NCBI GenBank assembly: GCA_041671045.1
Contig: JBAZCF010000006.1
Coordinates: forward strand, 19,290 to 83,289
Reading direction: 5' to 3'
Length of the DNA: 64,000 nt
DNA from: Parachlamydiales bacterium
Lineage (GTDB): Bacteria; Chlamydiota; Chlamydiia; Chlamydiales; JABDDJ01
Shown: positions 13,406-13,936 of the stretch, in pieces
Layout of the letters: each line of letters opens with the position of its first letter
Numbering within the stretch: position 1 is the first letter of the stretch
Made by a program: the position numbers and the translations under genes
The notes under the pieces: model-generated
The model's database searches: none
The model's input: the letters and a program-made list of their open reading frames with translations, nothing else
What the model was told of the DNA's origin: nothing

Positions 13406-13936
13406 GCAGGGTTTCACCCTGCACCCAGCAAGGCTTTGCCCTGCACCTACCAAAGGACTAGCGTCCTTTGGAATCCGCAAATGGTTATCGCATCTCCGAA
13501 GTCCATTTCTTAGTACGCTTCGACACGAATCTCCGATTCGTGTCGCCGACGTTGACCTGCCCGCTACGCGGTCACGTCAAACATTATGGTAAACCTTAGC
13601 TTTTCATTCCGAATAGGTATTCACTAATAGACTCAGGCTTTAATACGAAAAAAACTCTAATCAGATTTTATAATCTCAATTTTTTGGAAATATTCATTGC
13701 TTGAGAAAACAATCGAATGGAATTAGTGTATAACCACTATCTGAGAAGAAAATGGTGTGTCGAATAGTGCTTGACGTGACCGCGAAGCGGGCAGGTCAAC
13801 GTCGGAGACGCGAATCGGAGATTCGCGTCGAAACATGAAGAAACCTAGCTTCCAGGCTAGCGATACAATTCGCGGATTCCAAAGGACGCCAGTCCTTTGG
13901 TAGGTGCAGGACGAAGTCCTGCCTGCGTGCCCGCTG
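13406..13936. repeat. MITE-like long palindromic element, copy 1 (~531 bp; ~175-bp hairpin-rich inverted arms around an AT-rich core)
   Basis: Arm 13406-13580 is the imperfect reverse complement of arm 13771-13936. The same element recurs at 19235-19771. It fills the gap between the convergent yjbH-like and GT2 genes. Confidence 0.85.

Follow-up and report, generated by a model that had tools for sequence, protein, structure and literature searches.

The window analysed here is a stretch of 64,000 nucleotides from a Parachlamydiales bacterium (assembly GCA_041671045.1, contig JBAZCF010000006.1; C6:19290-83289), in which the gap between two convergent genes, one of the YjbH family and one for a GT2 glycosyltransferase, is filled by a hairpin-rich palindrome at 13406-13936 (coordinates are window positions unless a contig, such as C1 or C2, is given). 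The element is probably a lineage-specific, non-coding and modular palindrome of gene 3' ends, similar to repetitive extragenic palindromic (REP) sequences, bacterial interspersed mosaic elements (BIMEs) and miniature inverted-repeat transposable elements (MITEs), and linked to transcription. Its family marks the most compositionally aberrant genes of the genome, in which silent sites are up to 60-75% C.

The palindrome and all four hairpins named in the first-pass annotation were found in the sequence. The stop-to-stop stretch 13369-13939 (571 nt) is palindromic with both stop codons included, and the outermost pairing joins TAGCAGCGG on the left with CCGCTGCTA on the right, so the palindrome extends to both stops. 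Folded as single-stranded DNA, this stretch formed one long hairpin of -164.9 kcal/mol (z = -22, 100 shuffles). Folding of each arm as RNA, as had been proposed, predicted the local hairpin chain A, A, B, x, C, D, with z values of -4.3 and -5.0. The parts of the element are as follows.

13369-13405, + strand: left terminus TAGCAGCGG, whose TAG is the YjbH stop codon, and a 26-nt leader; pairs with 13931-13939 in the DNA fold.
13406-13448, + strand: A unit of 22 nt (AGCAGGRYTTYRYCCTGCACCY) in two tandem copies, both forming hairpins whose stems have 7 bp (direct repeat, RNA fold and covariation of helix 1).
13407-13423, + strand: hairpin GCAGGGT-ttc-ACCCTGC, read in the sequence.
13450-13480, + strand: B hairpin CCAAAGGAC-tagc-GTCCTTTGG (13450-13471) with the conserved tail AATCCGC (RNA fold, covariation).
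13486-13518, + strand: variable spacer x, a left-arm variant common to the left arm of copy 2 (arm alignment).
13521-13545, + strand: C hairpin CGACACGAATC-tcc-GATTCGTGTCG with an 11-bp stem (RNA fold, one compensatory pair).
13548-13578, + strand: D hairpin, bulged, GACGTTGACC...GGTCACGTC, which is the annotated stem GACGT(T)GACC...GGTCACGTC; invariant in 10 of 10 arms and common to a second palindrome family.
13588-13763, no strand: AT-rich core of 176 nt, varying among copies (about 150-530 nt).
13773-13830, - strand: right-arm hairpins D' (13773-13803) and C' (13806-13830) (inverted repeats, RNA fold).
13842-13858, - strand: right-arm x' hairpin followed by a T-rich stretch, the sole terminator-like match in the element, and a weak one.
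13865-13939, - strand: right-arm tail, B' (13879-13900), a single A' (13906-13922) and the terminus CCGCTGCTA with the GT2 stop (sequence, folds).

The A and B units together are termed the A-B cassette below, and an equal layout was met in other phyla. The arms had been described as imperfect reverse complements around a core of about 190 bp; the complementarity stands but is organized in blocks, and the core is shorter. The blocks pair 13519-13587 with 13764-13832 (69 nt, 91%), 13428-13485 with 13865-13922 (58 nt, 88%) and 13403-13431 with 13897-13925 (29 nt, 76%), and the spacer of about 33 nt (13486-13518 and 13833-13864) is non-complementary between the arms. A sub-terminal motif, GTATTCACTAATAGACTCAGGC, lies in the core at 13617-13638 and is retained by most arms. 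The distance from the YjbH stop (13369-13371) to the first hairpin is 34 nt, and the GT2 stop (CTA on the + strand, 13937-13939) abuts the right arm as described. The open reading frame (ORF) at 13723-14034 lies inside repeat sequence and the element has only repeat-derived ORFs, in agreement with its annotation as non-coding.

The family proved larger than the two copies first noticed. The genome (3.0 Mb, 42% GC, a draft of 20 contigs) holds five full copies, 73-88% identical, plus shorter relatives.

13406-13936: copy 1.
19235-19771, + strand: copy 2, the same element, between TrpS (+, 18213-19208) and a 391-aa gene (-, 19784-20959), both of which are C-recoded.
C1:577231-577852: full copy.
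C1:588822-589433: full copy.
C3:274602-275599: full copy with a 530-nt core.

Their ten arms can be aligned over about 270 nt, comprising the tandem 22-nt A units, B, C, D and an inner motif GTATTCACTAATAGACTC, and their centres are unlike in sequence and vary in length from about 150 to 530 nt. Across the ten arms, 98.2% of the stem cells of the alignment are paired. Rare unpaired cells aside, every change in a stem is balanced by a compensating one (5 pairs, 11 cells, no one-sided case), a pattern matched by 0 of 500 shuffles, and no G-U intermediates were seen among these changes. The shorter palindromes consist of A-B hairpins around an AT-rich core, or of A-B-A' only, and partial cassettes also occur; examples of the A/B palindromes are C2:266912, C2:251868, C2:347463, C2:373672, C4:153012, C5:74525 and C13:18204. 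This census is a lower bound because several contigs of the assembly begin or end inside repeats. Such contig ends were observed at C7:1-184, C11:1-379, C14:1-242 and C7:163974-164471.

Genes were called with an ORF-based heuristic (2241 genes covering 90% of the genome), by which 370 of the 2221 gaps are convergent. Convergent gaps hold all 13 palindromes of the A/B type (P = 7.6e-11) and 17 of the 24 members of other families. The first hairpin starts 0-34 nt past each stop, and of the 12 stops at C2:266912 and the 5 full copies, 6 are a TAG with a CAG of the A unit right after it; the palindromes thus often supply the TAG. Each of the 22 bona fide A-B cassettes stands directly past, or overlaps, a gene 3' end in the matching orientation, and most of them are arranged in facing pairs.

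The genes reading into these cassettes show a gradient at silent sites. When the genes reading toward A/B elements were aggregated over 13 elements, the fraction of C at third codon positions (C3) was 0.54 within 0.5 kb of the element, followed by 0.45, 0.41, 0.35 and 0.32, and reached 0.24 by 6 kb, while the corresponding G fraction (G3) increased over that distance from 0.07 to 0.21. Upstream of a cassette, the shift fades smoothly within about 2-5 kb. Recoded genes next to cassettes (the four window genes and 9 other loci) have silent sites with 45-75% C and 4-9% G, and the genes with the highest C3 over the last 100 codons are almost all beside cassettes or upstream in the same operon. The comparison sets gave the following values.

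Elements of other families (n = 15): C3 flat at 0.22-0.26.
Other convergent gaps (n = 343): C3 flat at 0.21-0.24.
Genes pointing away, at equal distances: baseline.
Transcription unit after GT2: C3 of 0.20 and 0.13, the effect ending at the unit boundary.

In the window, the flanking genes of copy 1 follow this pattern, and GC skew passes from values between about -0.24 and -0.31 to +0.33 at copy 1, and from -0.39 to values between +0.34 and +0.40 at copy 2, a jump of about 0.6 at each element.

11185-13371, + strand: YjbH-family gene (Pfam YjbH, E = 4.9e-155), running into the left arm; C3 rises from 0.42 at the 5' end to 0.73 over the last 100 codons, and in 300-nt bins from the 3' end it is 0.72, 0.61, 0.60, 0.56, 0.49, 0.42 and 0.42.
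13937-14737, - strand: GT2 glycosyltransferase gene, running into the right arm; C3 from the 3' end is about 0.58-0.59, 0.46 and 0.32-0.33.

By codon class, usage within 750 nt of the elements compares with the genome as listed below; amino-acid composition is nearly unaltered (ratios to the genome of 0.79-1.18).

Two-fold pyrimidine-ending codons, fraction C: 0.75 within 750 nt, 0.38 in the genome.
Two-fold purine-ending codons, fraction A: 0.87 within 750 nt, 0.68 in the genome.
Four-fold codons, C/A/G/T: 0.60/0.17/0.05/0.18 within 750 nt, 0.26/0.26/0.15/0.33 in the genome.
Leucine TTR and CTN counts: 29 and 683 within 750 nt, 36793 and 55916 in the genome.

Neither the element nor the C-rich composition of its flanking genes was found in the relatives compared. 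The element was absent from 40 relatives and from the orthologous sites of all relatives whose locus was retrieved, and the A-B pattern was absent from 401 Chlamydiota genomes of 212 genera. In L157, the closest contig found (amino-acid identity of 92% for YjbH, 85% for TrpS and 82% for GT2), no cassette follows YjbH or TrpS, and homology with the present genome stops at the YjbH stop codon. C3 of the three shared genes is far lower there, and GC skew over them has the opposite sign.

YjbH: C3 of 0.21 in L157, 0.54 here.
GT2: C3 of 0.16 in L157, 0.47 here.
TrpS: C3 of 0.10 in L157, 0.47 here.

Similar differences were observed for citrate synthase and malate dehydrogenase, whose C3 is 0.14-0.25 in four relatives compared with 0.49 and 0.52 here. 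Against the 88%-identical YjbH of another relative (L153), C stands here for T, A and G in 100, 32 and 16 codons, and the reverse holds in 58, 16 and 3; only the 3' half of the gene shows this asymmetry, with 94 codons against 30, compared with 54 against 47 in the 5' half. Since the outgroup relatives are saturated at silent sites, counts of polarised substitutions carry noise.

Several causes of the composition were rejected. Translational codon adaptation does not account for it, as EF-Tu, RpoB and ribosomal genes have a C3 of only 0.27-0.37 and prefer CGT, GGT, GCT and CCT, not CCC, GCC and ACC (CCC usage is 0.15 in highly expressed genes and 0.58 near elements). Step-like tracts of horizontal gene transfer (HGT) disagree with the smooth profiles of individual loci, a purely positional, origin-like skew disagrees with the baseline values of away-pointing genes, and retro-conversion by a reverse transcriptase would require an RVT_1 gene, which the genome lacks.

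Taken together, the layout suggests that the arms are cassettes for gene 3' ends, in which stable hairpins follow the order A, A, B, spacer, C, D, and that two such cassettes face each other across the AT-rich core. Since the element fills the convergent gap up to both stops, each arm would form the 3' untranslated end of the gene reading into it. The family may have spread within the lineage in the manner of a REP, BIME or MITE repeat, and it could persist at convergent 3' ends either as a harmless passenger or as a useful two-way transcript-end structure, which might act as a pause site or roadblock for RNA polymerase and as a barrier to 3' exonucleases. Only units reading into the cassette show the distance-dependent synonymous shift to C, which makes it likely that the cassette is coupled to transcription of the unit upstream. 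A bolder reading, which we hold tentatively and think slightly less probable than its opposite, is that the A-B cassette anchors an undescribed process, tied to the transcription unit and growing 3'-ward, that pushes synonymous sites of the sense strand from T, A and G to C and depletes G, and that this process arose in the lineage together with the cassettes. The leading candidate cause is repeated repair synthesis of the template strand behind polymerases stalled or queued at the hairpins, which could produce such a gradient; selection for C-rich, G-poor 3' RNA of the Rho type, unstructured, could also do so and ranks second, and exposure of the template strand through antisense transcription or R-loops starting at the element is a third candidate.

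The functions offered in the first-pass annotation (a bidirectional terminator, an RNA stability element or a MITE) fared differently. The idea of a canonical intrinsic terminator was not borne out: the terminator scan stood at shuffle level (8 sites versus 6.2 ± 2.8 in shuffles, one of them weak and at the x' hairpin). A role at transcript 3' ends keeps its support from position, as the elements sit between convergent genes at their stops and only the genes reading in are anomalous, and it loses the classical terminator as its form. As for a MITE, the element has terminal inverted repeats, has no coding capacity and measures less than about 1 kb, and orthologous sites without it exist after YjbH and TrpS in L157; no insertion sequence (IS) with matching ends was found and MITE status is unproven. 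The ends read TAGCAG...CTGCTA, so that a TA or CTAG duplication is indistinguishable from an extension of the palindrome. Genome self-comparison revealed no longer element with these ends, and no coding sequence lies in the core of the 1-kb copy at C3:274602. Inverted doublets are present as in REPs, but the units are chains of four different hairpins and no GTAG-type head was found. The reverse transcriptase and the adenine-specific changes that go with target genes of diversity-generating retroelements (DGRs) are lacking, since there is no RVT_1 and the changes to C come from T, A and G. Against Rfam 15, no family reached the gathering score, and the only sub-threshold match was a plant miRNA model on copy 2 (35.6 versus 100 bits).

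Some results weigh against a mobile, transcription-linked 3'-end palindrome and against its part in the gradient. In the element scan, no A, B, C or D hairpin was followed by a U tract. No target-site duplication is readable because the ends are palindromic, and no autonomous partner was found. The two Y1_Tnp genes of the genome (C1:306059-306580 and C10:45184-45498; 86 and 81 bits; RAYT/IS200-like, RAYT standing for REP-associated tyrosine transposase), which occur along with three fragments, are flanked by other hairpins (GCCACTTCGTGGC, ACTGCTTCGCAGT and ATCGCGGTAGCGAT), with no A, B, C or D nearby, and RVT_1 had no match in the genome. The low copy number (5 full copies) and the private variants common to both arms of a copy imply that recombination or local duplication-inversion could also have built the family. 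The palindrome family that shares hairpin D shows a similar position bias but no gradient, and a cassette on a Desulfobaculum plasmid, described below, shows no skew flip.

The strongest rival is a purely selfish REPIN (a REP doublet forming hairpins) or MITE moved in trans by the Y1 transposase, in which the preference for convergent gaps reflects insertion tolerance and the C-rich flanks are either unrelated or targeted. We consider this unlikely, though it deserves attention: the genome encodes the Y1 proteins, the elements are inverted doublets of hairpins whose stems change in a compensatory way and show no G-U intermediates, as would be expected of DNA hairpins, truncated and decayed copies are present, contigs break in the repeats, and the family is lineage-specific, yet its cassette is found across phyla. 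It must, however, accommodate Y1 genes that adjoin different hairpins, the presence of only about 22 cassettes without a conserved GTAG-type head, and the 3'-end orientation of all bona fide cassettes together with a unit-tied gradient, neither of which is expected of an inert parasite. Alternatively, the hairpins could be DNA-level initiation sites, at which nicks or breaks start outward repair or strand-displacement synthesis, leaving the template strands of both flanking genes single-stranded or newly made and making the element mainly a local, origin-like mutational hot spot. The exact flip of GC skew at both window copies, the extreme G3 of about 0.05, resembling the strand asymmetry of vertebrate mitochondrial DNA (mtDNA), and the slightly raised G3-C3 of the first away-pointing genes (-0.031 versus -0.059, P = 0.011) speak for it. 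It is nevertheless improbable, given that away-pointing genes are essentially at baseline (for example, C3 of 0.18 and G3 of 0.15 in a 547-aa gene that lies 1.1 kb to the left of copy 2), that the effect ends at a transcription-unit boundary (GT2 versus the next unit), and that changes from A to C and from G to C are included, not deamination-type transitions alone.

The core could also be the functional unit, with outward promoters or a small RNA and with the arms as 5' leaders of antisense transcripts into both neighbours. An outward -10-like hexamer (TATAAT, TACAAT, CATAAT or AATAGT) precedes hairpin D in most arms, and in the second family a core of about 150 nt is conserved and oriented. 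But no -35 partner is present, promoter-like sites were fewer than in shuffles (9 versus 13.7), the cores of the five full copies are unlike in length and sequence, the family sharing the D junction has no gradient, and no Rfam family passed its threshold, all of which makes this explanation very improbable. A chance palindrome or an assembly artefact finds its only footing in the draft state of the genome and is effectively refuted by the fold z value of -22, by several diverged copies inside contigs of 167-690 kb and by the compensatory stem changes.

Compared with known systems, the palindrome of copy 1 and its family come closest to the REP/BIME/REPIN-RAYT repeats of E. coli, Pseudomonas and Stenotrophomonas, which likewise are extragenic hairpin modules forming mosaics and inverted pairs, occupy the 3' ends of genes but no divergent promoter gaps, have compensatory stems and live in genomes with RAYT-like genes. 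REPs stabilise upstream mRNA. The present arms, however, comprise 185-270 nt of four hairpins instead of a single 20-40-nt REP, the cassettes number about 22 and not hundreds, there is neither a GTAG-type head nor an adjoining Y1 gene, and the palindrome contains stop codons. We know of no description of a C gradient in units flanking REPs. Correia elements (CREE) of Neisseria, ERIC/IRU, pneumococcal BOX and RUP and cyanobacterial Nezha are also small, non-coding, species-specific and multi-copy repeats with inverted ends, and the modularity of BOX, with truncated derivatives, and the ability of such repeats to extend neighbouring ORFs have counterparts here. The element differs from such MITEs and modular repeats in having no readable target-site duplication, no parent IS and no sequence or Rfam similarity, and in its restriction to convergent 3' ends. 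Bidirectional intrinsic terminators share a symmetric structure directly past both stops that is common to two convergent units, but they measure about 40 nt, compared with 530-1000 bp here, and the element lacks their A-/U-tract frame and belongs to a repeated family.

The gradients of vertebrate mtDNA, which follow single-stranded time, and the C-rich, G-poor RNA of Rho rut regions resemble the present case in the C-rich sense strand, the G near 0.05 and the gradient from a fixed point, and DGR target genes resemble it in that a hairpin marks the 3' end of the gene concerned. Here, in contrast, the gradient is unit-specific, extends over kilobases within translated genes and includes transversions to C, and the pattern is not adenine-specific, nor was a reverse transcriptase gene found. 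Searches of the literature on chlamydial REPs, the motif strings and comparable gradients yielded nothing relevant.

Small hairpin repeats are usually regarded as inert parasites or simple mRNA stabilisers, and this family is unusual in its restriction to convergent junctions with stop codons included and in the occurrence of its outer cassette in distant phyla. If the repeat causes the gradient, it would exert on the evolution of bacterial sequences a force that is local, strand-specific and linked to transcription, open to direct study and of relevance to analyses of codon usage, HGT and skew. If the bolder reading is true, a small repeat rewrites the silent sites of its neighbours, by mutation or by selection at the nucleic-acid level. 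Should such genes be the target of the repeat instead, a new targeting rule would follow.

Outside this genome, the A-B layout was found past stop codons in a few unrelated metagenome contigs (GC 0.45-0.71), twice as an A-B-core-B'-A' palindrome; such cross-phylum occurrences are few. In two GC-rich metagenome genes entering a cassette, a weaker trend in the same direction was observed. A cassette was also found on the Desulfobaculum bizertense plasmid NZ_CP090010.1 (L152 2500-2870), past a stop in a convergent gap, where no such trend was seen. The A-B pattern was absent from 30 arbitrary GC-rich genomes. A search for hairpin D across GTDB, with each species represented by one genome, met only isolated chance matches in GC-rich genomes, the D pattern had no match in JGI metagenomes, the D and A-B patterns gave chance matches inside phage genes or none in viral contigs, and the arm had no BLAST match in plasmids or phages. 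Judged from this scattered distribution of sequences, the A-B cassette is probably of horizontal origin. The plasmid cassette adjoins a classical A/T-framed bidirectional terminator hairpin, and its B'-A' partner lies about 300 nt further.

The gene order around the window copies differs from that of L157, where it is YjbH(+), ALAD(-), GT2(+), TrpS(+). In the present genome GT2 is inverted and ALAD (hemB) is missing beside YjbH (13937-19208 compared with L157 6702-11837), and GT2 and TrpS are separated by two AT-rich J-domain-type genes with C3 of 0.13 and 0.18. Because the order differs, the empty sites do not demonstrate a clean insertion. With the two window copies located at its joints, the rearrangement may have been mediated by the palindromes, which may shape gene order more generally. 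In the more distant relatives L154 and L156, a convergent gene lies 15-17 nt past the YjbH stop. The contigs of two relatives, L153 and L155, break 36-56 nt past the YjbH stop, and these relatives may hold unassembled elements.

A second palindrome family of about 490-580 bp has outer arms of its own, made of tandem units of about 80 nt, around a core of about 150 nt that is conserved and oriented, and shares only hairpin D with the A/B family. It includes many truncated members and one tandem dimer, and convergent gaps are the site of most of its members too.

C14:37311-37795: second-family member.
C9:22253-22823: second-family member.
C7:64149-64687: second-family member.
C8:115605-116494: second-family member; about 10 more exist.

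Individual loci of the A/B family showed further peculiarities. The A/B-only palindrome at C2:266912-267216 has as its core a microsatellite of the (AAATTAAAA)n type with about 12 units. The convergent ORFs C2:372490-373671 and C2:373899-374219 enter the two arms of one palindrome and carry an identical repeat-encoded tail, ...RGLRPLDPCQRAKPFGNRFPPSGQ. At C5:53470-53620, a B'-A' cassette lies immediately 3' of a tRNA gene, itself located after a C-recoded gene, so that a unit ending in a tRNA appears to be capped by the cassette. The hairpins that flank the RAYT-like Y1 transposase genes form a third set, of which GCCACTTCGTGGC and ACTGCTTCGCAGT are dispersed about 35-40 times in the genome, and the Y1 gene on C10 appears to be frameshifted at a poly-A run.

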